A stretch of 64,000 bases of DNA from Alphaproteobacteria bacterium. Lineage in GTDB: Bacteria > Pseudomonadota > Alphaproteobacteria > CAAHEQ01 > UBA3637. Positions within the stretch are counted from its first letter, which is position 1, and every line of letters starts with the position of its first letter. Under the pieces are notes generated by a model. The model was not told where the DNA came from. It did no database searches and saw only the letters and a list, made by a program, of their open reading frames with translations. Positions 1 through 30,118 of this stretch are shown here, piece by piece. The stretch spans positions 613 through 64,612 of the forward strand of contig JAGDDD010000018.1 of the NCBI GenBank assembly GCA_017958225.1, given 5' to 3'. Made by a program: the position numbers and the translations under genes.

Positions 1-971
1 CTCAGGCGGGAGAATTTACGCGCCGAGCACTTTACAACAATAAGATGGATTTAACACAGGCAGAAGGTCTGTTGGATCTGATTCACTCTCAAACAAAAGA
101 GCAGGCGCGTTGGGCAATGCGCCAAATGGGCGGCGAATTAGGTCAGATTTATCAAAACTGGCGTCAAGACCTGATTAAAATATGTGCTCAAGTTGAAGCC
201 TATATTGACTTTCCGGAAGAAGAAATTACCGGCCAATACGCGGCAGATATTCAAAAATTACTCAATCAAATACATCAGCACATTGAACAAGGCGAAAAAG
301 GCTTAAAACTGGCACAAGGGTTATTGTGTGTGATTGCTGGCGAACCTAATGTCGGCAAATCGAGTTTGTTGAATGCTTTGTTAAAAAAAGATGTGGCGAT
401 TGTATCGACCACAGCCGGCACAACACGCGACGTAATTCAGGCTCAAGTTGATTTAGAAGGCTATCCGGTCATTATTGCCGATACGGCCGGGTTGCGTAAA
501 ACACAGGCCAGTCTTGAAAAAGAAGGTATTCGCCGCGCGAAAGACTATGTCAAGAAGTCAGATATTTTGATTTATGTCATGGACAGCACACAAAAGGCGC
601 AAGTCATACCGGCATGGGTGCAAAAACATCCCTGCGCGCTGATTGTCTATAACAAGGGAGATAAAAAAGAACACGACGGACTGTGTATCAGTGCTAAAAC
701 AGGCAAAAATATAGATGTTTTGCAAAACAAGTTGCGCAAAAAAGTGGTTGACATGATGTCCTCATCAACACCCTTTTTGACACATGAAAGATACAAAGAA
801 ACACTACAAAAATGTTGTGAAAGTCTGCAACAATCCCTTAAAGCCTCAGAGATAGAACTGATTGCCGAACACTTGCATAGAGCCATACGCCTGCTGGGCG
901 AAATAACAGGTTATGTTCGGGTGGATGAGATTTTGGATCAAGTGTTTTCGACATTTTGCATAGGAAAATAA
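1..971 (+). CDS. mnmE: tRNA modification GTPase MnmE, C-terminal part (5' end cut by window edge)
   Basis: The frame stays open from nt 3 (QAGEFTRRALYNNKMDLTQAEGLLDLI). G1 motif GEPNVGKSSLLN, then DTAGLR, NKGD and the C-terminal FCIGK typical of MnmE. It directly precedes mnmG. Confidence 0.9.
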   Translation, partial: QAGEFTRRALYNNKMDLTQAEGLLDLIHSQTKEQARWAMRQMGGELGQIYQNWRQDLIKICAQVEAYIDFPEEEITGQYAADIQKLLNQIHQHIEQGEKGLKLAQGLLCVIAGEPNVGKSSLLNALLKKDVAIVSTTAGTTRDVIQAQVDLEGYPVIIADTAGLRKTQASLEKEGIRRAKDYVKKSDILIYVMDSTQKAQVIPAWVQKHPCALIVYNKGDKKEHDGLCISAKTGKNIDVLQNKLRKKVVDMMSSSTPFLTHERYKETLQKCCESLQQSLKASEIELIAEHLHRAIRLLGEITGYVRVDEILDQVFSTFCIGK

Positions 972-2813
972 ATGGAAAAGTATGATGTCATTGTTGTGGG
1001 CGGAGGACATGCCGGCTGTGAAGCCGCTGCGGCCGCTGCACGCATGGGCGCACAAACGCTTTTAATGACTCATAAAATCAGTTCCATAGGCGATATGTCT
1101 TGCAATCCGGCTATTGGCGGTTTGGGTAAAGGCACGGTTGTTCGTGAAATTGACGCGTTAGACGGGCTGATGGGCAAAATTGCCGACAAAGCCGGCATAC
1201 AATTTCGTGTGCTCAATGCCTCAAAAGGCGCGGCTGTGCAGGGGCTTCGCGCGCAAGAAGACAAAAAAATCTATCAAAAAGAAATGCAAAAAGCCCTGCT
1301 CTCCTATCCGCGTCTGACGGTTAAAGAAGGGCAAGTGGCTCACCTGTTATACGATAAAAAACAAATACAGGGCATTGAAACAGACGATGGGGCGCGGTTT
1401 TATGCGCCGGCTGTTGTTTTAACAACAGGCACTTTTTTTAACGGGCTGATGCATCAAGGGCCGGTAAAAACACAGGGTGGTCGCTATGGAGATCCGGCCT
1501 GCACAACTTTGACGGACGATTTGAAAAAATTGGGCTTAACCGTGTCGCGGTTGAAGACAGGCACGCCGGCGCGTCTGGAAAGAGATTCAATTGACTGGTC
1601 ACAAACACAGCGACAAGACGGGGACATGGAGCCGGTATTTTTCTCTTATACCACATTTCAGACAACCCAGCGCCAAGTGCCTTGCTATATCACACACACA
1701 ACTCAAGAAACACATAAAATTATTCGTGATAACCTGGACAAAGCGCCCATGTATTCCGGACAAATTAAATCTGTCGGACCGCGTTATTGTCCCAGCATAG
1801 AAGATAAAATAGTCCGCTTTGCTTCGCGCACATCTCATCATATTTTCTTGGAGCCGGAAGGGCTGGACAGTCCGTCTATTTATCCGAATGGCATATCAAC
1901 TTCACTGCCTGTGGATGTGCAAGACGCCTTTTTGCGCACGATTCCCGGCTTGGAAAACGTTAAAGTGATTCGCTATGCGTATGCGATAGAATATGATTTT
2001 GTGGATCCGCGTCAAATATACAGAACGTTAGAGACAAAACAATGTTCCGGTTTGTTTTTGGCCGGTCAAATCAACGGAACAACCGGCTATGAGGAAGCCG
2101 GCGGACAAGGGCTTATAGCTGGTGTCAATGCCGCGCTGAAAGCACTTAAAACGGGCAAAAACTTCACGCTCAGCCGCACCAACAGTTATATCGGCGTGAT
2201 GATAGACGACATTTGCACCTTTGGCATAGATGAGCCCTATCGGCTTTTTACCTCGCGCGCGGAATACCGGCTGTCTGTGAGGGCGGATAATGCCGACTTG
2301 CGCCTAACGCCTTTAGGGATAGAGATTGGTTGTGTCGGTAAAGAAAGACAGGAATTGTTTGAAAGCAAAAAGAGACTTTATGAGCAAACATCAGCGCAAA
2401 TGAAAAAACAGCGCCTAACCGCACAACAACGCAAACAACTGACCTATACAACGCCGATCCATCCGTCAAAAAGCCTGTTTGAACAATTGGCCTTTATTGA
2501 AGATGGGGAGCAGGTGAAAAAAGCGTGTCCGGAATATGCCCATCTGCCTCAATCTTTAATGTATGTTTTAATGACGGAAAGCAAGTATGCAGGCTATTTG
2601 GCGCGCCAACAACAAGACATAGAGGCCTGCCAAAAAGACGAATCGTTTCCTATTCCTCAAGATATAGATTATGCGCGCGTGGCTAGCCTGTCTTCGGAAA
2701 TGATTCAGCGCCTCAACAAGGCGCGTCCGGAAACGTTGGGTATGGCATCACGCTTGCCAGGCATAACCCCTGCCGCCTTGACATCTTTGTTGGCCTTTTT
2801 GAAAAAGCATTAA
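972..2813 (+). CDS. mnmG: tRNA uridine 5-carboxymethylaminomethyl modification enzyme MnmG (GidA)
   Basis: 613 aa. N-terminal FAD motif [16 protein letters not shown], then [12 protein letters not shown] and [11 protein letters not shown]. Start abuts the mnmE stop. Confidence 0.95.
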
Positions 2814-21596: not shown

Positions 21597-22370
21597 TTAC
21601 CCCTTGAAGAACAATTCGGTCAAAATGTAGTTGGAAATCAAGATGAGAATAGACGCTGACACCACAGCGTTTGTGGTGGCCGATCCCACACCCTGTGCGC
21701 CACCTTTGGAATTATAACCGTGATAACAACCTAACAAGGCCACAATAAAGCCGAAAACGGCGGCCTTAGCCATGCCGGTCGTGATATCTCCCGTTGTTAA
21801 ATTGGTCCAGGTGCTGTTCAAATAAGATACCGAGTTAAAGTCCAGTTTATAAATACCGACCAGGTAGCCACCGCAAATACCGATAACGTCGCCAATCAGC
21901 ACCAAAACGGGCAGAATAATCACGCTGACCACAATGCGCGGCACAATCAGGTATTTGAAAGGGTTCGTTGATAAAGTAATCATGGCGTCAATTTGCTCGG
22001 TTACGCGCATGGTTCCGATTTCTGCCGCCATGGCAGCACCGATACGTCCGGCCACCATCAAGCCGGCCATGACCGGCGCCAATTCGCGCAACACCGCTAT
22101 CAGCACCACCAAAGCCACCGAGCTTTCCGCCGAAAACTGAGAAAATCCTTCGTAAGTTTGCAGGGCAATTACCGCGCCGGAGAAAAAAGTTGTCAGCGCG
22201 ACTACCGGCAACGAATAAAAGCCGATTTCCACAAACTGTTCCACCATTTGTTTGACATAAACGGGCGGTGTAAAGCAATTATAAACGGCTTGCAGGGTAA
22301 AAAGGCCCAGGCGGCCCGTCGCCCTTAAAAACCTTAAAACAATCTTTCCGACACGAATAAAAAAGTCCAT
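21597..22370 (-). CDS. mlaE: ABC transporter permease, MlaE-like
   Basis: 257 aa polytopic protein. LRELAPVMAGLMVAGRIGAAMAAEIGTMRVTEQIDAM is typical of the MlaE/Ttg2B family. Confidence 0.8.
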   Translation of the reverse strand: MDFFIRVGKIVLRFLRATGRLGLFTLQAVYNCFTPPVYVKQMVEQFVEIGFYSLPVVALTTFFSGAVIALQTYEGFSQFSAESSVALVVLIAVLRELAPVMAGLMVAGRIGAAMAAEIGTMRVTEQIDAMITLSTNPFKYLIVPRIVVSVIILPVLVLIGDVIGICGGYLVGIYKLDFNSVSYLNSTWTNLTTGDITTGMAKAAVFGFIVALLGCYHGYNSKGGAQGVGSATTNAVVSASILILISNYILTELFFKG

Positions 22371-22423
22371 AGCAACCTCTTATATAAAGTGTATGTAAAA
22401 GCCCTGCCGATTGCAAGTCATTT

Positions 22424-22729
22424 TTACAATGCAAACAACTTCTGCAAAAGCGCACAAATCGTCTCTTGGCAAGCACTCGGGAGCACCCCGATTTTGCGTA
22501 TCAGTTGCGATTTGGGCAGGGTTTGCAGTTGGTCCAACATAATTTGTCCTTCCTGTTTATCCAACAACACAGTGACGCGAAAAGGCAGCGGGCGCAGTTG
22601 CGATGTAATCGGCGCCACGCAGACATAAGGCAAATGCTTGTTGAGTTCATCCGGAGACACAACGACGCAGGGCTTTTGCTCGCCTTCTTCTTGTGTCATA
22701 TACAACATAAAGCGTTTTACCATTGCCAC
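22424..22729 (-). CDS. type II toxin, MazF/PemK family
   Basis: 101 aa. PCVVVSPDELN...VCVAPITSQ...DQLQTLPKSQL matches the PemK/MazF pattern. Overlaps the upstream antitoxin gene by 13 nt. Confidence 0.7.
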   Translation of the reverse strand: MAMVKRFMLYMTQEEGEQKPCVVVSPDELNKHLPYVCVAPITSQLRPLPFRVTVLLDKQEGQIMLDQLQTLPKSQLIRKIGVLPSACQETICALLQKLFAL

Positions 22730-22935
22730 TCTCCTTCTTCATGAAAAGGTGTGTTTTGTGCTTCCAGCTCCACCAACACATCCCAGTTGTGACGCTGCCG
22801 GTCAGCTGGTTGCAAAATCAGCGCATTGTTTTGAACGGTGGCCTCTAATACTTTTTTAAAGCCACATTGAGAAATAACGCCCGCCGGAATGCGCACGCCT
22901 TGTGAATTGCCGATACGAATTAAAGACAGTTTCAT
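22717..22935 (-). CDS. type II antitoxin, AbrB/MazE (SpoVT-AbrB) family
   Basis: 72 aa. IRIGNSQGVRIPAGV is the swapped-hairpin AbrB motif. The C-terminus is acidic with Trp residues. Confidence 0.7.
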   Translation of the reverse strand: MKLSLIRIGNSQGVRIPAGVISQCGFKKVLEATVQNNALILQPADRQRHNWDVLVELEAQNTPFHEEGEWQW

Positions 22936-24464
22936 GAGGCGTCTCCTTTCGTTGTCGGTGCGCTATGGCACTGTTTAAGAATCATGTAAAGCCGTCCGGC
23001 GTCAGAGCCGACCAACAAAGGCAGCAACAACTCCTTTTTCCCGTTGGTTTGTATCTTGGCCGAAAAAGCGTCAAACTCCGCCAAATAGCGCGTGACCGCA
23101 ATGCGATAAGAGGTATCTGTCTGATACAGTTTCTGCAACTTGTCGCGCTTTTCTTTGGACAAGGCGGTCAGCAAGTGCCGCATGAACGCGCTGACATCGC
23201 CAGCATAATATTTTTTCCACAAGCCCTCTTCCGCTTTCGGCGAGAAAATGTGAGTCATATCAATGGAAAACTGCGACAGGTGCGACAAGATAAGACGCGC
23301 GTCTGTCATAAACGAATCCAACTGTAAGGAATCCAAATTGTCTTTGGTCGCGCTGATATGTTTGGCCGCCTCTTGAGAAATCTTTTTCAGCTGGTCCAAC
23401 TGGGGCGCCAGGTCCGTTTTTTGTAAAATCGACAGGTGTTCTTCCAGCCCATCCACCGATTGCTGTATGTTTTCGGCCTGTAGGCTGATTTGCGTGTTGA
23501 ACTTGTTGAGCTGTTGCAACGCCTGATCGGTGTGAGATTGCACCTGTTGTGCCTGTTCCAACGTTTGTGTTTGCGCTGTGGTTAGGCGGCCGAGCAGTTT
23601 GTCGGTTTCGGCCTCTAAAATACGCCCTTGTTCCTGCACGCTGTGAATCAGTTGTTGTGCGTTGTTGGACAATCTTTCCTGGCATTGTTGCGTGTCGGCC
23701 TCATAGCGCGTCAAAATAGCGTCAAGCCCTTGATTGTTGGCAGCAAAAGCCTGCGCAATCGTGCGGGCCTGCCCCAAACCTTCTTGCGCGCGATCCACCG
23801 AGGTCAAAACCGTGTGCGTTACCGCCTCAATTTGCTCTTTATTTTTGGCCAGTAAAGCGGTAATTTGTGCGGCTGTTTGAACAGTGTTGTCGGCGGCTTT
23901 TTGCAAGATAGTGGAGCGCATTTGCAAAGATTGTGTCACTTCCTGCGTGGTCGCATTGGCCTTTTCCATGGATTTAGCCAATATTTGCACGTGACGCGCC
24001 ATTTGACGAATAGAAGTCAGGGTATGTTTGTCCGCGTGGTCGATAATGCGCGCCAATTCCTGTAACCAGGTGCGCAAATCAGTGCGCATATTTTGGCTTT
24101 GTTCGGCGACCAGGGCAAATACCTTTTTAAACTCTTTGATTTGATCGCGCAGCGTGGATGTCAGCGCCTGGGTATAGGCCGCTCCCTCTTCCGTCGGAAA
24201 CATCAGCTGTTGCATATAATTTTGCAGCATCTGCGTTTCTTCCTGCAATTGCTTTTTATGCAAGATCCAGACGACCACAAACCAAATCAGCGCTAACGGC
24301 AGGCATTGGCTGAGCAAGGTGCCGACAAACTCCGCGGGCGCTAACTCATAACGGTGACTCCACCAGCCTGCTTGGCTGAGGTAATCGAGCGCCAGACCTA
24401 TCCAGACAAGGCTGACAATACAGGCGCCTAAAACGACGGGTTTTTTCCATAAAGACGAGTTCAT
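22932..24464 (-). CDS. membrane-anchored coiled-coil protein, function unknown
   Basis: Two N-terminal TM helices followed by about 350 aa of Q/L/E-rich heptad-like sequence. Start set at the ATG at 24464, which has a GGAG RBS. Its stop overlaps the mazE start (ATGA). Confidence 0.6.
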   Translation of the reverse strand: MNSSLWKKPVVLGACIVSLVWIGLALDYLSQAGWWSHRYELAPAEFVGTLLSQCLPLALIWFVVVWILHKKQLQEETQMLQNYMQQLMFPTEEGAAYTQALTSTLRDQIKEFKKVFALVAEQSQNMRTDLRTWLQELARIIDHADKHTLTSIRQMARHVQILAKSMEKANATTQEVTQSLQMRSTILQKAADNTVQTAAQITALLAKNKEQIEAVTHTVLTSVDRAQEGLGQARTIAQAFAANNQGLDAILTRYEADTQQCQERLSNNAQQLIHSVQEQGRILEAETDKLLGRLTTAQTQTLEQAQQVQSHTDQALQQLNKFNTQISLQAENIQQSVDGLEEHLSILQKTDLAPQLDQLKKISQEAAKHISATKDNLDSLQLDSFMTDARLILSHLSQFSIDMTHIFSPKAEEGLWKKYYAGDVSAFMRHLLTALSKEKRDKLQKLYQTDTSYRIAVTRYLAEFDAFSAKIQTNGKKELLLPLLVGSDAGRLYMILKQCHSAPTTKGDAS

Positions 24465-24542
24465 GCTATCTCCTATATCATGGGTTGTTACAGGAATGAT
24501 AACAGGCTTTAAGATAAAAAGCAAGAAGTAATTACAAAGTAA

Positions 24543-25394
24543 TCACAAATATTTTTTAATTGTGCAAATGTCTGATTTTTCTATAATTTTTTTGAAAACC
24601 ATTTGATGTCTAAACCAAGTCAGTTGACGTTTGGCGTAATGACGCGTGGCTTGAGCGGCACGTGCGCAAGCGGTATCCAAATCGGCCCCCTGTTCGATGA
24701 CTTCAGATAATTCTTTTACGCCTAATGCCTGAAAAACGCCGCCTGTTTTTTGCGGGTTGGCGCGCAACAGGTCGCGAACCTGGTTCAATGCCCCCTGCTC
24801 TACCATTTGTTGAAAGCGCGCGTCAATGCGTTGATACAGCGTCTGCCGATCCGGCTCGATGAAAATAGTATAAAAATCGGCGATCAGTGCGGGCTTTTTG
24901 GGCCGGTTGTGAAAATAGGAAGGCCAATGCCCGCTCGCCAAGAACACTTCCAAAGCCCGACGCGCACGTTGCGGATCGCGCAAACTGTCGTTGGGCAGTT
25001 GCGCCAATACCTCGTCTAAAGGCATCTGCCGAACCCGAGTGCGAATGTCGTCGGGAATGTCGGGCAAAGAGGCCAAGCCTTCTGTCAGCGCCTTTAAATA
25101 CAGACCCGTGCCACCGACAAAAATGGGCGTTTCTATGTTTTTGACAGCCTCGACAGCGCGCTGCAACCATCCGTAACAATTTTCTCTCTCGGTAGCGCCT
25201 AAATACGCATACAAATGATGAGGAGCTTGTTGTTTGTCTTCATCGCTCGGCTGGGCAGTCAATAACGGCACATCCCGATAGACTTGCAGGGAGTCAGCGT
25301 TGACAATCTCGCCATGCAGATATTCAGCCATCTGTAAAGCCAGATGACTTTTTCCGGATGCGGTCGGTCCCGCTATGACAAAAACGCGCTTCAT
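24543..25394 (-). CDS. miaA: tRNA dimethylallyltransferase
   Basis: P-loop IAGPTASGKS, then VNADSLQVYRD and GGTGLYLKAL. Confidence 0.9.
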   Translation of the reverse strand: MKRVFVIAGPTASGKSHLALQMAEYLHGEIVNADSLQVYRDVPLLTAQPSDEDKQQAPHHLYAYLGATERENCYGWLQRAVEAVKNIETPIFVGGTGLYLKALTEGLASLPDIPDDIRTRVRQMPLDEVLAQLPNDSLRDPQRARRALEVFLASGHWPSYFHNRPKKPALIADFYTIFIEPDRQTLYQRIDARFQQMVEQGALNQVRDLLRANPQKTGGVFQALGVKELSEVIEQGADLDTACARAAQATRHYAKRQLTWFRHQMVFKKIIEKSDICTIKKYL

Positions 25395-25560
25395 GGCTTA
25401 TAGCCTACACGAAAAGAGACAGTTTGTCCAGACTTTTTATAACATAATTACAATGTAATTACATAGGGCGTAACTTTAGGGAAAACAAGGCCTTTATTGG
25501 TCGGGTTGTGGTCCGTTTGGCTTTAAGATTTAATTAAATAAAATCGGTTACATTATCTGT

Positions 25561-26340
25561 ATGTATCAAGAAAGGTATCCTTTACAGGCGGCGGAAGCGC
25601 GGGCGCAAGAGTTGTGGGCGGGCCAAGTGTGGCCGTTGCCCGATGCGCCGGGCATAACGCAGGCAGTCAGGGCGGATATACGAGCGCGCTATCAGGGCAT
25701 GGATCTTGTTGCCGGGCAGCCTTCGCTTCTCCGGTTGGGTGTTTTGATTTCGTCGCACGCCCCGTTGCCGGACAATTTGTTTCAAGGGGCCGATGCCTTC
25801 CGTTTATCTTGCGTCTTGTCCGAAAAAACGAACGCGTGCCCGCCGGCGTCTTGTTGGCGCTTGGTCCATCAACTGGTGCATAAACTGCGCGGCGCCGAGC
25901 CATTTTCAGACGGTGTAATTACAATGTATATACAGCAAAATCCAGGGGATGCCGCCATCGTCAAAGCCCTGCAAAACGGCAACTTTTATCAAGCCTTATC
26001 GTTGGTGCGTGCCGGCCTGTCCAAGCCAGTATCAGTCGCACAAAAAAGTTTTTATTTGGCGGTGGTGTATCCGATGGTGCCGCACGCTGCCTTGTATCTT
26101 TTGCCAAATGCACAACAGCAAGCGGCCGCCTTTTATCGTTGGGTGGCAGTTCAGGCGTTGCCCCTGCCCGTCTTGGTGGGTGGTCGTTTTTGCGCTTGGT
26201 ATTGGGAAGGCGCAAAAGCCTCACAGGCGCAGCTTGAAAAAGAAGTCTTGTCTTTACCCGCTGTTTCGAATAAAATAAAAGGCAAATCGGTTCAACGCAT
26301 TATTTATAAAAAAGGAAGAGTCGTTCATGTGGTTGTATAA
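25561..26340 (+). pseudogene. leuS: leucyl-tRNA synthetase relic: in-frame fusion of LeuRS N-terminal about 60 aa to the C-terminal anticodon-binding/C-terminal domains; catalytic core absent
   Basis: MYQERYPLQAAEARAQELW resembles E. coli MQEQYRPEEIESKVQLHW. ADIRARYQGM resembles GDVIARYQRM. GADAFRL resembles GADTVRL. The C-terminus KSVQRIIYKKGRVVHVVV resembles VRKVIYVPGKLLNLVV. No HIGH or KMSKS motif, no CP1 domain. It sits upstream of lptE-holA, where alphaproteobacterial leuS normally lies. Confidence 0.7.
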
Positions 26341-26839
26341 AGGCATCATGGTGTTAGGATTGGCGGCATTGACGGCGTGTCAGTGGTCTCCCGTTTATGA
26401 AAAGCAAGACGCGCAGGCCGACGCGGTGACGGCACAAGTTCAAATTGAGCCTATCCCCGAAGAAATCGGGCGTGTGATTCGCCAAGAGTTGATCAACACC
26501 TTAAATCCGAAAAACGAGGACGCCAAAAAGGCCTATCGATTGACGGTCAGTCGCGTGCAGGAAACGTCTTCCAATGTGGGTATCGTCACAGACAACACCG
26601 CAACGCAAGCGATTATGCACTTGTCGGCAACCTATCAATTAACGGAAATGGCAACCAAGAAGGTTTTGTTGAGTTCAGCGGCGCGCGTGGCGAGCAACTA
26701 TAACATTTTGCGTAAAGACCCGTATGCGACGGTAACGGCCCGCGAAAATATCAAAAAGACGCTCAGCTTGATGTTGGCAGATCAAATTGCCTTACAGGTG
26801 GCCCAAACACTTAAACAATTGAAAAACAATGGAAATTAA
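26327..26839 (+). CDS. lptE: LPS assembly lipoprotein LptE
   Basis: Lipobox LAALTAC and about 170 aa. Position between leuS and holA is conserved in proteobacteria. Confidence 0.7.
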   Translation: MWLYKGIMVLGLAALTACQWSPVYEKQDAQADAVTAQVQIEPIPEEIGRVIRQELINTLNPKNEDAKKAYRLTVSRVQETSSNVGIVTDNTATQAIMHLSATYQLTEMATKKVLLSSAARVASNYNILRKDPYATVTARENIKKTLSLMLADQIALQVAQTLKQLKNNGN

Positions 26840-27836
26840 AAGGCCTTTTTTAACGGCGGACGCCCTCAATCGTATGCCCAGCCTGTTTATTTTTGGCGCG
26901 GATGTCGGCGGTATAGCCGATGCGGCGCAAACGGCGCTGAACTTGTTGGGCGCTAAAAAAGGCGGCTTTGATGTGATTAAAATTACGCCCGACGATTTAA
27001 AGGCGACGCCTTCTTTGTTTTGGGATGAAGTCTCGTCGATGAGTTTATTGGCATCCAAACGCATTGTTCACTTGTGCAATCCGTCAGATACGTTTGAAAA
27101 AGAGCTGGCTCTTTATTTGCAAAAGCCGGCTCCCGGCGTGTTTGTGTTGGTTACATCCGATACGCTCAATACGAAGTCGGCCATTTATCGCCTGTATAAA
27201 GCCGACGCCAAAGCGGCCGCCCTGGGCTGTTATTTGCCTTCGGTTGCCGAATTAAAGAGCCTGATACAAACATTTTTGTCGCAACAGGGTCTGTCCATAG
27301 AGCCCAACGCGTTAGCCCAACTGGCCGCCTATGAGGGCGCGGACCGGCAAGTCACCTTGTCTGATTTAGACAAATTGTGTGTGTATATGGGCGACAAAAA
27401 GCAAGTTACCTTGGCGGATGTGGAAGCGTTGATTGGCAATAACGCCAAAGTCAGCACGGATGATGTCTTTTTCGCGCTGTTGAGGGGGGATGATTTGAGC
27501 GTTCAACGCTCTGTTGAGCTGTTGTGGCAAGACGGAATCAACAGTGTGTCTTTGGTGCGTGCGGTCTTGTCTCGCATGATGCAGATGTTATCGATTCGTG
27601 CGAAAGTCGCTAAAGGCGCCGACATAGATTCTGCCTCACGCGCCGCCGTTCCCTTTATTCCATTCGCTTACAAGGACACATGGCGATCGGCGTTGAGTGT
27701 GCTGTCCGGCCCGCAGATTCAAAATATGATTCATACGCTGTTGGAAACAGAAAAGCAGATGAAGTCGGGTTTGCCGATGGATTTGATGGCGCAACGCGCC
27801 CTGTTACAACTGACAGAGCAGAGAAAAAAGCGCTAA
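26829..27836 (+). CDS. holA: DNA polymerase III subunit delta
   Basis: 335 aa. Length, synteny (lptE-holA) and the helical C-terminal region with LLETEKQMKSG-type segments. Confidence 0.75.
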   Translation: MEIKRPFLTADALNRMPSLFIFGADVGGIADAAQTALNLLGAKKGGFDVIKITPDDLKATPSLFWDEVSSMSLLASKRIVHLCNPSDTFEKELALYLQKPAPGVFVLVTSDTLNTKSAIYRLYKADAKAAALGCYLPSVAELKSLIQTFLSQQGLSIEPNALAQLAAYEGADRQVTLSDLDKLCVYMGDKKQVTLADVEALIGNNAKVSTDDVFFALLRGDDLSVQRSVELLWQDGINSVSLVRAVLSRMMQMLSIRAKVAKGADIDSASRAAVPFIPFAYKDTWRSALSVLSGPQIQNMIHTLLETEKQMKSGLPMDLMAQRALLQLTEQRKKR

Positions 27837-28714
27837 TCTTCGACTGGCCCGCCGGTTGTCAGACGTTGTAAAATCGTATCCAACTTTTCCAAATTGTTGC
27901 AGGCGACCGTAATTTTGCCGGATTTTCCTGTCCATTTAATAGATACCGCTGTCTTCAGCAAGGCGGACAATTCGGCCTCCAATGCCAAAATATCCCGATC
28001 TTTATGCTCGTGGGCCGGTGCGGCGCCTGTCGCGCGCGGTTTCTTTGTTTGCATAGCCAACTGTTCGGCCTGTCGGACGTTGAGTCCTTGCGCAATAATT
28101 TTTTTAGCCAAGGTTTCCGGATGGGCGGTGTTTAACAAAGCACGTGCATGTCCGGCGGACAATTCGTTGCTTTCCAACAATTTTTTGACACTGTCAGGCA
28201 GGTCCAGCAAGCGCATCATATTGGCCACATGACTGCGGCTTTTGCCTACCACTTTGGATAATTCTTCCTGCGTGTATTGAAACTCCTTCATCAAGCGCGC
28301 ATAGGCCGCCGCCTCTTCCAACGCATTTAAATCTTGGCGTTGCAAGTTTTCAATCAAAGACACTTCCAAAGTTTCTTTGTCGGAAAAATGTCGGACAATG
28401 GCCGGCACCTGTTTTAAACCGGCTTGAGAGGCCGCCCGCCAACGACGCTCGCCGGCAATAATTTCATATTTGTTGTCGGCAATCGGACGCACAAGCAGTG
28501 GCTGTAACACGCCTTTGGCGGCAATTGAGGCGACCAAGTCCGCCAACTGTTCCGGCGCAAACACCTTACGCGGCTGATACCGTCCGGGTTGCAGGCTTTG
28601 CACGGGCACCAACTCAACAACATCCGCCTTTTCGCCGGCCTCTTGCACCGGGTCAATTTCTCCCAAAATGGCCGACAGGCCTTTTCCTAAACCGATTTTA
28701 TCCATGAGATACAA
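27833..28714 (-). CDS. parB: chromosome partitioning protein ParB
   Basis: LGKGLSAILG, ParB box GERRWRAA, and HTH QEELSKVVGKSRSHVANMMRLL. Confidence 0.9.
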   Translation of the reverse strand: MYLMDKIGLGKGLSAILGEIDPVQEAGEKADVVELVPVQSLQPGRYQPRKVFAPEQLADLVASIAAKGVLQPLLVRPIADNKYEIIAGERRWRAASQAGLKQVPAIVRHFSDKETLEVSLIENLQRQDLNALEEAAAYARLMKEFQYTQEELSKVVGKSRSHVANMMRLLDLPDSVKKLLESNELSAGHARALLNTAHPETLAKKIIAQGLNVRQAEQLAMQTKKPRATGAAPAHEHKDRDILALEAELSALLKTAVSIKWTGKSGKITVACNNLEKLDTILQRLTTGGPVED

Positions 28715-29489
28715 ACTCCTTTTCTCGTTTTAAAAACTCTTTAGCCAGTTGCAAATAAGCTTGCGCACCGACGCATTTAAAATCATACAAAAGAACAGGC
28801 TTTCCATGTGAAGGCGCTTCCGGGATACGCACGTTGCGCGGGATGACTGTCTCATAAACCTGTTGCTTGAAAAAGTCGCGCACATCTTGGCACACTGAGG
28901 AAGATAGACGGCTCCGCTTGTCAAACATCGTCAGCAAGACACCGTGCAGGGCAAGGCGCGGGTTAAAGTTCTTTTGAACGCGCTCAATGGTCTTGATCAA
29001 GTCGGCCACACCTTCCAGAGCCAGATATTCGCACTGGATGGGCACAATCACGGCATCCGCCGCCGTCAGCGCATTGATCGTCAGCATACCGACGGCCGGC
29101 GGGCAGTCTATAAATATATAGTCAAAGTCCAGTTGCGTATTCTGCAGAGCTTGTTTCAGGTAAAACTGCGGTTTTTCCACCTGCGCCAGCTCGATGTCCA
29201 AGCCGAGTAATTCTTTGGCCGACGGTAAAACAGACAGACAGGGAATCTGTGTCGGCACAATCGCACTGTCCAGCGTGTCTTGTCCGGTCAACATGGTATA
29301 GGCGTTGTGTGGCGCATTTTGGCGCGAGATGCCTAAACTGACAGTGGCGTTGCCTTGCGCATCCAAATCAATCAACAGGACCTTTTTGCGCAAAGCCGCG
29401 ATGGCAGTCGATAAATTGACGGTTGTGGTGGTTTTGCCGACGCCGCCCTTTTGGTTAGCAATGGCAAAAACGCGAGGGAACAGACTCAT
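28698..29489 (-). CDS. parA: chromosome partitioning ATPase ParA
   Basis: Deviant Walker A NQKGGVGKTTT, then IDLDAQGNAT and IDCPP. Confidence 0.9.
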   Translation of the reverse strand: MSLFPRVFAIANQKGGVGKTTTTVNLSTAIAALRKKVLLIDLDAQGNATVSLGISRQNAPHNAYTMLTGQDTLDSAIVPTQIPCLSVLPSAKELLGLDIELAQVEKPQFYLKQALQNTQLDFDYIFIDCPPAVGMLTINALTAADAVIVPIQCEYLALEGVADLIKTIERVQKNFNPRLALHGVLLTMFDKRSRLSSSVCQDVRDFFKQQVYETVIPRNVRIPEAPSHGKPVLLYDFKCVGAQAYLQLAKEFLKREKEFVSHG

Positions 29490-30118
29490 GAGTCCTCCTT
29501 TCTGATATCAATAATAACGCCCGAAGGGTCGGTTTGACTGGGGATAGACTGAACAGTAAAGCCGGCAGGCAACCGGGCCTGTTCTTCTTGAACGCGCGCT
29601 CCTTTCAAAAATAAAGCGTGCGTCGTGTCTTTCCAAAAAGCCGCGCTCAAGCGCAATAGCGTAGGCAAATCGGACAAAGCGCGGGCCGTGATGATGTCAG
29701 CCGGCAAGGCAGGCATGTCCTCTATCCGACAATTATGGATGGTCACGGGCACAGACAATTGGCGCGCACACTCTTGTAAAAACGCACACTTACGGGTATC
29801 GCTTTCCACCAGATGAACATGTAAAGACCGGCCAGCGTCGTGGGCCATCAGGGCTAAAACAAGACCGGGGAAGCCTCCGCCGCTGCCCAGATCCACCAGC
29901 GTTTCTGCGTCTTTCGGGACAAAGGCGAACAGTTGGGCGCTGTCCAGGATGTGTCTTTCCCATGCGTCTTTCAGCGAATTGTTGCTAACCAAGTTGACGG
30001 CTTTTTGCCACTTTTTGAGCAAAGTTTCAAATGTTTGAAGCTTTTTTTGTAGTTCTTTTGATAAAATTATCTCTTGTTTCACGTGAAACTTTCCCCGTTT
30101 TTGTTTCATGTGAAACAT
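29486..30118 (-). CDS. rsmG: 16S rRNA (guanine527-N7)-methyltransferase RsmG (GidB)
   Basis: LVDLGSGGGFPGLVLA SAM motif and RHILDS. First gene of the rsmG-parA-parB operon. The exact start is uncertain because the first about 15 codons are the parS sites. Confidence 0.85.
   Translation of the reverse strand: MFHMKQKRGKFHVKQEIILSKELQKKLQTFETLLKKWQKAVNLVSNNSLKDAWERHILDSAQLFAFVPKDAETLVDLGSGGGFPGLVLALMAHDAGRSLHVHLVESDTRKCAFLQECARQLSVPVTIHNCRIEDMPALPADIITARALSDLPTLLRLSAAFWKDTTHALFLKGARVQEEQARLPAGFTVQSIPSQTDPSGVIIDIRKEDS
30075..30090. promoter_or_regulatory. parS: parS centromere-like site 1 (TGTTTCACGTGAAACT)
   Basis: 15/16 match to the canonical palindrome TGTTTCACGTGAAACA. Immediately upstream of, and inside the 5' end of, rsmG-parAB. 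Confidence 0.85.
30102..30117. promoter_or_regulatory. parS: parS centromere-like site 2 (TGTTTCATGTGAAACA)
   Basis: 15/16 match to the canonical parS, with a central C to T change. Starts 27 bp after site 1 starts. Confidence 0.8.

Follow-up and report, generated by a model that had tools for sequence, protein, structure and literature searches.

Non-catalytic and dissected relatives of leucyl-tRNA synthetase

Non-catalytic proteins derived from aminoacyl-tRNA synthetases are already known, for example HisZ, the HisRS-like regulatory subunit of ATP-phosphoribosyltransferase, and LeuRS-I of Sulfolobus, a non-catalytic duplicate of leucyl-tRNA synthetase (LeuRS). Both keep the fold of the catalytic domain and are encoded by extra copies at other loci. 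Here, we analyzed a 64,000-nucleotide stretch of DNA from an alphaproteobacterium (positions 613 to 64,612 of contig JAGDDD010000018.1, GenBank assembly GCA_017958225.1; hereafter the window), in which an ATG-initiated open reading frame (ORF) of 259 codons plus TAA, at 25561..26340 of the plus strand, lies in the slot of leuS, the LeuRS gene. Its predicted product, called mini-LeuRS below, resembles HisZ and LeuRS-I in being synthetase-derived, apparently incapable of aminoacylation and maintained by selection, but differs from both in that the catalytic domain has been deleted entirely and in that the gene sits at the ancestral locus, which implies that the original leuS itself was converted after its functional displacement. 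In the papers that we found, leuS, lptE and holA were never mentioned together and no core-deleted LeuRS was described. We likewise found no described case of a class I synthetase from which the entire catalytic core was lost in place while the remainder stayed conserved and folded at the ancestral locus, and here this has apparently happened twice.

The closest relative by descent is the bacterial-type LeuRS (TIGR00396; structures 1H3N and 2BYT from Thermus thermophilus, 4AQ7 and 4ARC from Escherichia coli), with which the mini-LeuRS shares a homologous N-terminal helix, post-KMSKS helices, anticodon-binding bundle and C-terminal domain, as well as the slot upstream of lptE-holA and a 14-nt overlap with lptE. 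It differs in length (259 versus about 860 amino acids), in the loss of the catalytic core, the CP1 domain and the zinc and leucine-specific modules, in a basic instead of an acidic net charge, and in changed tRNA-contact residues of the C-terminal domain. In Aquifex, the beta-subunit of LeuRS starts before the KMSKS motif, which it carries, and represents half of an active enzyme, the alpha-subunit being the rest. The mini-LeuRS is similar to this subunit in that a C-terminal, tRNA-binding part of LeuRS forms a separate polypeptide, but it has lost KMSKS and contains fused N-terminal LeuRS segments, and a search of the window and the adjacent 9 kb disclosed no alpha-like partner. The division of Aquifex aeolicus LeuRS into two subunits, with the C-terminal tRNA-binding part in beta, is stated in a passage of PMC2377443 that cites Xu et al. 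(2002 JBC 277:41590). In-frame domain deletions in LeuRS are also known from Mycoplasma mobile, whose enzyme (3ZIU; PMC3643597) has naturally lost CP1, and from the engineered LeuAC urzyme (bioRxiv 10.1101/2025.04.05.647346), which lacks both CP1 and the anticodon-binding domain; both keep the catalytic signatures and are active. The mini-LeuRS is their reciprocal, having lost the catalytic core but retained the C-terminal domain and the domain for anticodon binding.

Ancestry and anatomy of the mini-LeuRS

Our comparison set included 80 genome loci fetched with ParB as the anchor. In more than 25 Rhodospirillales-like genomes among them, the slot upstream of lptE-holA held a full-length LeuRS of 845-870 amino acids with both HIGH and KMSKS, and marine Rhodospirillales relatives displayed the canonical order DUF3576, leuS, lptE, holA, parB, their LeuRS in ENA being 865 amino acids long. 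Since the ancestral slot holds a full-length LeuRS, the ORF of the window occupies the leuS slot, as had been proposed in an original prediction made from the sequence of the window. The overlap of 14 nt with the lptE start, noticed at the same time, was found as well, and full-length leuS loci share its geometry: the junction reads …CAT GTG GTT GTA TAA in the window, with the lptE ATG embedded in it, and …AAT GTG GTC GTT TAG in the full-length loci.

Single-sequence searches with the ORF protein gave no match in Pfam and values of E = 0.026 for NCBIfam leuS_bact and E = 1.2 for LeuRS in a phmmer search of the PDB. The leuS_bact match covered positions 730-842 of the 843 in the model, i.e. the C-terminal domain, and a profile of the close subgroup was still weak against the PDB (E = 1.8). 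The missing Pfam match and the weak, C-terminal LeuRS similarity are what could be cited for a decaying pseudogene or an assembly collapse of a full-length leuS, a notion to which we return below. Profile-profile comparison with hhalign aligned 10 close orthologues (alignment A1) with 24 syntenic LeuRS (A2) at 93.1% and E = 3.2e-7, and 17 sequences including distant mini-LeuRS members (A3) with A2 at 98.7% and E = 4.1e-16, placing mini-LeuRS residues 39-259 on LeuRS columns 607-864. The original prediction had made its case hang on a significant alignment to the LeuRS termini, and the latter comparison supplied it for the C-terminal part. When the A3 profile was used to search the PDB, only LeuRS was significant (6.1e-11 for T. 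thermophilus, 1h3n; 7e-9 for E. coli), and hmmsearch matched mini-LeuRS 74-261 with T. thermophilus LeuRS 651-876. The family profile scored up to 67 bits with alphaproteobacterial LeuRS versus 39-46 bits with the T. thermophilus and E. coli enzymes. AlphaFold2 (AF2) predicted a compact fold from the 17 sequences (pLDDT 90.8, pTM 0.86), an earlier model from the 10 close sequences alone having been poor (pLDDT 54), and the best 29 Foldseek matches of the AF2 model in the PDB were all bacterial LeuRS (E down to 1.2e-7). By these sequence and profile comparisons, the derivation of the ORF from a bacterial LeuRS is statistically proven.

The retained parts are those of an internally deleted LeuRS (cf. 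Table 1), and a LeuRS derivative with an in-frame core deletion at its ancestral locus is indeed what had been predicted. In 24 of 25 LeuRS, the best match to a profile of the family N-terminus fell on residues 1-30 (scores of up to 16 bits, whereas 1000 shuffled LeuRS did not exceed 5.8 bits), in agreement with the predicted LeuRS-like N-terminus. The proposed post-HIGH segment ADIRARYQGM fared less well: it is collinear with the LeuRS helix, but corresponds to LeuRS 57-69 by position alone and was not significant by itself in the profile test, so that homology is statistically not demonstrable. The GADAFRL segment, the helices of the anticodon-binding domain and the LeuRS-specific C-terminal domain, all named in advance, were recovered by hhalign, the PDB profile search and Foldseek. 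The reported loss of HIGH, KMSKS and about 600 residues was borne out on the sequence and the alignments. No H[ILMV]GH is present, the interval separating the N-terminal helix from the D39..R43 helix is about 22 residues shorter than in A2, and hhalign sets SLLRLGVL opposite the KMSKS segment of LeuRS; neither HIGH nor KMSKS occurs in any family member. With 259 instead of about 860 amino acids, the protein lacks CP1 and the full catalytic Rossmann fold, and it remains far below the curated LeuRS cut-off (TIGR00396, 12.6 versus 548.4 bits). Because the Rossmann beta-sheet with HIGH, the CP1 domain, the zinc and leucine-specific modules and KMSKS are all absent, neither leucine activation nor tRNA charging is possible, and judged from this anatomy the mini-LeuRS cannot aminoacylate. 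The close 259-residue subgroup also has an invariant C84, C93, C98 and H103 (C-x8-C-x4-C-x4-H; codons 84-103, window 25810-25872), and its C211 sits at the position of the LeuRS variable-arm arginine. These cysteines (C84, C93, C98 and C211) are absent from distant members, and the Cys/His set may form a metal or disulfide site particular to the subgroup.

A conserved family, its Thalassospira counterpart and possible roles

The first homology search yielded 10 proteins, all exactly 259 amino acids long, 61-100% identical and alignable without gaps. An exhaustive HMMER scan of 1.84e9 representatives added 15 further clusters (<50% mutual identity) with the same architecture, mostly of 241-263 amino acids, the few shorter ones being probably partial; its remaining matches were only genuine LeuRS or LeuRS fragments, and a word-indexed family search with A3 yielded almost no additional members. 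In every member with a readable context (L001-L009 and L090-L094 among our loci), four distant ones included, the order was miaA (minus strand), mini-LeuRS, lptE, holA. The carriers are uncultured Alphaproteobacteria, probably of the ruminant gut to judge by the sample labels XIEF21-1 and TONG22-1 alone, and are called the gut clade below. None of 17 family members matches any Pfam family, and the protein of the window is labelled hypothetical in GenBank (MBP5160852.1).

Pairwise comparison of four lineages gave a ratio of nonsynonymous to synonymous substitution rates (dN/dS) of 0.14-0.27 at dS 0.8-1.5 for the mini-LeuRS gene; the values were 0.10-0.15 for lptE, 0.06-0.10 for miaA, 0.02-0.08 for parB and 0.01-0.04 for holA. 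Thirteen residues (R5, Y6, E12, D39, R43, G60, G76, D78, A79, R81, W99, P171 and P174) are invariant family-wide, down to 24% identity; they lie within motif blocks homologous to LeuRS, and at several of the corresponding positions LeuRS is invariant too. A pseudogene or a collapsed assembly is refuted by these data. The identical gene was present in three independent metagenome assemblies, which excludes assembly collapse, all related lineages carry it at a conserved length, the close subgroup aligns without gaps, and neither stops nor frameshifts occur at dS around 1, with dN/dS well below 1; decay or artefact thus keeps next to no probability. The word relic in the original prediction is therefore not adequate for a length-conserved family fixed across a clade, with no indels in its close subgroup and a compact predicted fold. 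The dN/dS estimate called for by that prediction indicates purifying selection rather than decay, and of the alternatives offered there, that of a retained mini-protein is supported. Taken together, the comparisons indicate that the gene is functional and has been fixed in the clade for a long time, and a selected, LeuRS-derived, non-catalytic protein, i.e. one of synthetase ancestry with lost catalytic signatures and purifying selection on the protein, is very likely.

A similar situation was encountered in cultured species of the marine genus Thalassospira. A scan of all fetched loci with hidden Markov models of LeuRS and of the mini-LeuRS family revealed that these species, including the complete T. 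australica chromosome (NZ_CP085258.1), have no leuS upstream of lptE, but an ORF of 220-240 amino acids instead. Its products are labelled hypothetical proteins in RefSeq (WP_022733621.1, WP_033070329.1 and WP_133125054.1) and have no match in Pfam. An alignment of eight of them (A4) displays conserved blocks separated by indel-rich linkers: Y.S..YNPH.L.R.WG matches the LeuRS N-terminus, VG.D...L.LL.DVP matches LeuRS YGAD..RLF.LSDSPP, and HWRWLR..W and LFCP.I..LL are further conserved blocks. A4 shows homology both with the anticodon-binding domain of LeuRS (94.6%, E = 7e-8) and with the gut family (96.1%, E = 3e-9). Like the gut form, the Thalassospira protein is LeuRS-derived, lies in the leuS slot, retains the N-terminal motif and the anticodon-binding helices and overlaps lptE by its stop codon. 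It differs in its length, its linkers and its upstream neighbor, stops before the C-terminal domain, which it lacks, and is not consistently basic. In seven of the eight Thalassospira species its TGA overlaps the lptE ATG as ATGA, and GAAGG or GAGGA precedes. In a neighbor-joining tree of ParB plus HolA, which is rough and without support values, the gut clade and Thalassospira formed separate monophyletic groups, with many lineages carrying full-length leuS between them. Since the two also differ in upstream neighbors (DUF3576 versus miaA) and domain content, the Thalassospira form is probably of independent origin. The whole set is an unannotated family without a Pfam match that includes a cultured, genetically tractable genus.

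In both lineages the mini-ORF feeds directly into the essential lptE-holA, so that only an in-frame collapse would have been tolerated once another LeuRS was present. This makes the locus a natural experiment on the persistent linkage of leuS, lptE and holA in Proteobacteria, a linkage that has outlasted the gutting of leuS. It also raises the question of whether the ORF is a translated spacer and nothing else, surviving for the leuS promoter, the overlapping stop and start and the embedded Shine-Dalgarno sequence, with constraint arising only because a toxic or misfolded product must be avoided. Both the ancestral overlap of 14 nt and the embedded Shine-Dalgarno sequence are preserved, Thalassospira independently keeps an ATGA overlap, the native N-terminus, and presumably the native initiation region, is kept in both lineages, the dN/dS of the mini-LeuRS gene exceeds that of all neighboring genes, and the canonical tRNA-contact residues are lost (see below), all of which would suit a spacer. 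However, a spacer needs only an open frame and neither the observed dN/dS nor a constancy of 241-263 amino acids across members below 30% identity; the invariant LeuRS-signature residues far from the 3' end (those given above except G60) and a confidently predicted compact fold are likewise unneeded; and the deletion bias of bacteria should shrink a functionless spacer, whereas neither lineage shows shrinkage. We therefore regard a mere spacer as improbable, though as the strongest of the competing explanations, and consider a protein function beyond spacing somewhat the better bet. The translational-coupling spacer of the original prediction survives in part. As the ancestral junction is preserved, a coupling constraint is supported and may coexist with a protein function, but it cannot alone explain the conservation at the residue level, and the operon constraint leaves the constant length and the compact fold unexplained as well.

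The other role suggested at the outset was that of a tRNA-binding mini-protein. The product of the window has a pI of 9.6 and a net charge of +10.9, and 16 of the 17 family members are basic (pI 8.2-9.8), whereas the equivalent 225 residues of LeuRS have a pI of 5.3 and a net charge of -6.7; this difference favors some nucleic-acid binding in the gut family. The C-terminal domain of LeuRS docks on the G19:C56 elbow of tRNA-Leu, and in the Mycobacterium tuberculosis enzyme charged substitutions at Q915 (T. thermophilus Q822), which faces G19, abolish charging, as does the loss of R921, which recognizes the variable arm (PMC3561953). The fold motifs of this domain are kept in the mini-LeuRS family (V..NG[K/R], KEALS.. 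and the terminal beta-strands). Of 21 members, however, six have E at the glutamine position, two Q, two F and ten a gap or L; at the arginine position, 11 have C, three S, three V and three a gap, and none a basic residue. Canonical tRNA docking is doubtful on account of these changes. A free-standing protein that would dock on the tRNA-Leu elbow with its anticodon-binding and C-terminal domains just as LeuRS does, e.g. to sequester, chaperone or deliver tRNA-Leu, has the retained C-terminal fold and motifs, the tRNA-Leu binding of both the LeuRS C-terminal domain and the Aquifex beta-subunit (PMC3561953) and the strong basicity of the family on its side. Against it stand the contact positions, given that the equivalent charged or Asp substitutions abolish aminoacylation by the M. 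tuberculosis enzyme (PMC3561953), and the Thalassospira counterpart, which is entirely without the domain, and we consider it distinctly unlikely. The tRNA-binding claim is weakly supported by the basic charge and the kept C-terminal fold, but the G19-facing glutamine and the variable-arm arginine are not conserved. With its strongly basic C-terminal domain, the protein could bind RNA, either tRNA-like or mRNA, in a way that departs from elbow docking, and we put it forward tentatively, with slightly less than even confidence.

Even less probable, indeed very unlikely, is a split or heterologous LeuRS of the Aquifex type, in which the anticodon-binding and C-terminal domains would act in trans with a catalytic fragment encoded elsewhere. 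The retained region roughly equals the C-terminal part that is a separate tRNA-binding subunit in Aquifex (PMC2377443, PMC3561953), and the interface formerly packed on the Rossmann fold, presumably exposed now, could dock on a partner. On the other hand, the mini-LeuRS has no KMSKS, unlike the Aquifex subunit as characterized above, its N-terminal LeuRS segments are what an internal deletion and not a gene split would leave, its tRNA-contact residues have diverged, no LeuRS catalytic fragment is encoded in the 64-kb window or 9 kb beyond, and the Thalassospira form is devoid of the C-terminal domain.

We are thus moderately inclined to regard the mini-LeuRS as a pseudo-synthetase under selection, which would open the lptE-holA operon as a first cistron coupled in translation to the genes that follow, and would have a non-catalytic function of its own, at which its basic charge and its place in the operon hint indirectly. 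In such a scenario, the native bacterial-type leuS would have been displaced by another LeuRS encoded elsewhere and would then have undergone an ancient in-frame collapse that removed about 600 residues; as the first cistron, to which the essential lptE and holA are translationally coupled, the locus could have shrunk by in-frame deletions alone. The surviving N-terminal and post-HIGH helices, the helices after KMSKS, the anticodon-binding bundle and the C-terminal domain are predicted to make up a single compact fold, and this module would have taken on a non-catalytic function, with RNA binding in the gut clade as the best guess.

Several observations weigh against this pseudo-synthetase: (i) no other LeuRS-like sequence or catalytic fragment was found in the 64-kb window or in a further 9 kb of the contig (about 73 kb); (ii) the dN/dS of its gene is two- to ten-fold above that of lptE, miaA, parB and holA; (iii) its ATG is not preceded by a canonical Shine-Dalgarno sequence; (iv) the glutamine and arginine contact positions are changed as described; (v) the conservation at the 3' end is due in part to dual coding with lptE, and some of that in the middle of the ORF may stem from a DNA motif (cf. 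below); and (vi) the Thalassospira form has no C-terminal domain, and a property common to both lineages is therefore not mediated by this domain. What they share may instead lie in the N-terminus plus the anticodon-binding bundle, which would act structurally or in protein-protein contacts.

Concerning point (i), tRNA-Leu would of necessity be charged by another LeuRS encoded elsewhere in these organisms, an alternative that the original prediction had offered as well. Weak negative evidence came from the best 120 relatives of a Thalassospiraceae LeuRS, among which no Thalassospira-named LeuRS was present, and a plasmid search found no leuS on Thalassospira or gut-clade plasmids. The implied, undetected replacement of an essential synthetase bears on the evolution of LeuRS-targeting antibiotics and on horizontal transfer of aminoacyl-tRNA synthetases. 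A broader and rather improbable view is that of convergent exaptation driven by operon architecture: under the constraint of the shared promoter and the coupled lptE start, a displaced leuS could collapse in frame only, and its remnant, made up of the N-terminus, the anticodon-binding bundle and sometimes the C-terminal domain, would be recruited as an RNA- or partner-binding regulator, at least twice independently (gut clade and Thalassospira). The gut-clade regulator would be the basic protein whose gene is flanked by a conserved three-site DNA motif, and it could link tRNA-Leu or translation status to the expression of LptE (envelope) and HolA (replication).

Sequence features and surroundings of the locus

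The DNA motif just mentioned is the 19-nt sequence TAATTACAATGTAATTACA, which includes the perfect palindrome TGTAATTACA. Three sites were found in 64 kb, versus 0.01 expected, all of them around miaA and the mini-LeuRS gene (cf. Table 1). The copy inside the ORF is conserved at synonymous sites in four lineages and is recognizable in the distant L090 and L093, and the motif is probably an operator for a DNA-binding protein. The promoter-like region ahead of the ORF contains the AT-rich block TTAAGATTTAATTAA, conserved in L004 and L008. An Rfam search of the locus returned no RNA family.

Table 1. Positions of the features of the mini-LeuRS locus in the window and, in the last row, of its counterpart at the Thalassospira loci
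Feature	Position	Strand	Evidence and remarks
mini-LeuRS gene	25561..26340	+	LeuRS-derived, predicted catalytically dead, 259 aa; 10 gap-free 259-aa orthologues, hhalign, PDB, AF2, Foldseek, dN/dS
N-terminal LeuRS helix remnant, codons 1-27	25561..25641	+	M..ERYP....E...Q..W; R5, Y6 and E12 invariant family-wide
Helix collinear with LeuRS post-HIGH helix, codons 32-44	25654..25692	+	D39..R43 invariant; helix in AF2 model; HIGH strand deleted
Deletion junction, codons 45-74	25693..25782	+	degenerate remnant of KMSKS strand/loop, now SLLRLGVL; hhalign, mini-LeuRS 40-74 on LeuRS columns 607-640
Post-KMSKS helices and anticodon-binding helical bundle, codons 75-200	25783..26160	+	GADAFRL, WRLV, PMVPH; hhalign, PDB hmmsearch, AF2
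LeuRS C-terminal domain fold, codons 201-259	26161..26337	+	beta-beta-alpha-alpha-beta-beta; pI 10.1, net charge +6.8
Shine-Dalgarno-like AAGGAAGAG for lptE	26312..26320	+	within mini-LeuRS codons K250-K251-G252-R253; conserved in L004, L006, L008
Promoter-like TTGGCT-16-TAAAAT	25517..25544	+	17 nt upstream of the ATG; promoter count not above chance
19-nt motif TAATTACAATGTAATTACA	25445..25463		miaA/mini-LeuRS intergenic; 100% identical in the diverged L004 and L008
Second copy of 19-nt motif, 2 mismatches	25916..25934		inside the ORF, codons V119-I124 (VITMYI)
Third copy of 19-nt motif, 2 mismatches	24529..24547		3' end of miaA
miaA	24543..25394	-	Pfam IPPT, 2.7e-55; upstream, divergently transcribed; its neighborhood is characteristic of the gut-clade mini-LeuRS locus
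lptE-like lipoprotein gene	26327..26839	+	170 aa, lipobox LTAC; BLAST to lptE-position ORFs at about 50 loci
holA (DNA polymerase III delta subunit)	26829..27836	+	TIGR01128, 1.5e-39
Thalassospira mini-ORF	L037-L039, L042-L044, L047, L032 (e.g. L039 12928-13629)	- (L039)	between DUF3576 gene and lptE

The orthologue of the lptE-like gene at L090 has a weak match to Pfam LptE. With respect to base composition, the original prediction had described the segment as GC-richer than its flanks, and no other 300-nt stretch of the window is as rich in GC as 25600-25899 (0.61 versus a mean of 0.485); since the GC content at third codon positions is ordinary there, the excess reflects amino-acid composition. 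The many long antisense ORFs that it had mentioned are not unusual, the longest stop-free run in the other frames being 119 codons versus 79-138 in neighboring genes.

Downstream of holA, parB, parA and rsmG follow on the minus strand. The block rho-mnmE-mnmG-rsmG-parA-parB, usual in Alphaproteobacteria, is split here: rho-mnmE-mnmG is found at the window start (L098 plus window 1-2813; the ORF 45-971 is a truncated mnmE), about 25 kb from rsmG-parA-parB (27833-30118), which adjoins holA. In the distant family member L092, rho-mnmE is still near rsmG-parAB. Among the matches listed, the GTDB genomes closest by ParB (L010-L013, 63-65% identity) have a rearranged parB neighborhood in which lptE-holA does not adjoin parB.

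On the other side, upstream of miaA, the minus strand at about 22300-24524 encodes a PemK-family toxin with a 72-aa partner and a coiled-coil protein of 510-530 amino acids, which has a membrane segment at its N-terminus and belongs to no Pfam family; these genes are conserved throughout the gut-clade loci, the distant L092 among them. In one gut lineage only (L006 8569-9993 and L007 2305-3729), a gene for a 474-aa protein separates miaA from the mini-LeuRS gene, its end lying 8 nt ahead of the mini-LeuRS ATG. We considered whether it might be the leftover N-terminal part of LeuRS and rejected this, as it is an unrelated protein of about 14 tandem 23-aa Cys-containing repeats (TSLEGAPQEVGGxFxC) resembling leucine-rich repeats, with no Pfam hit on record.

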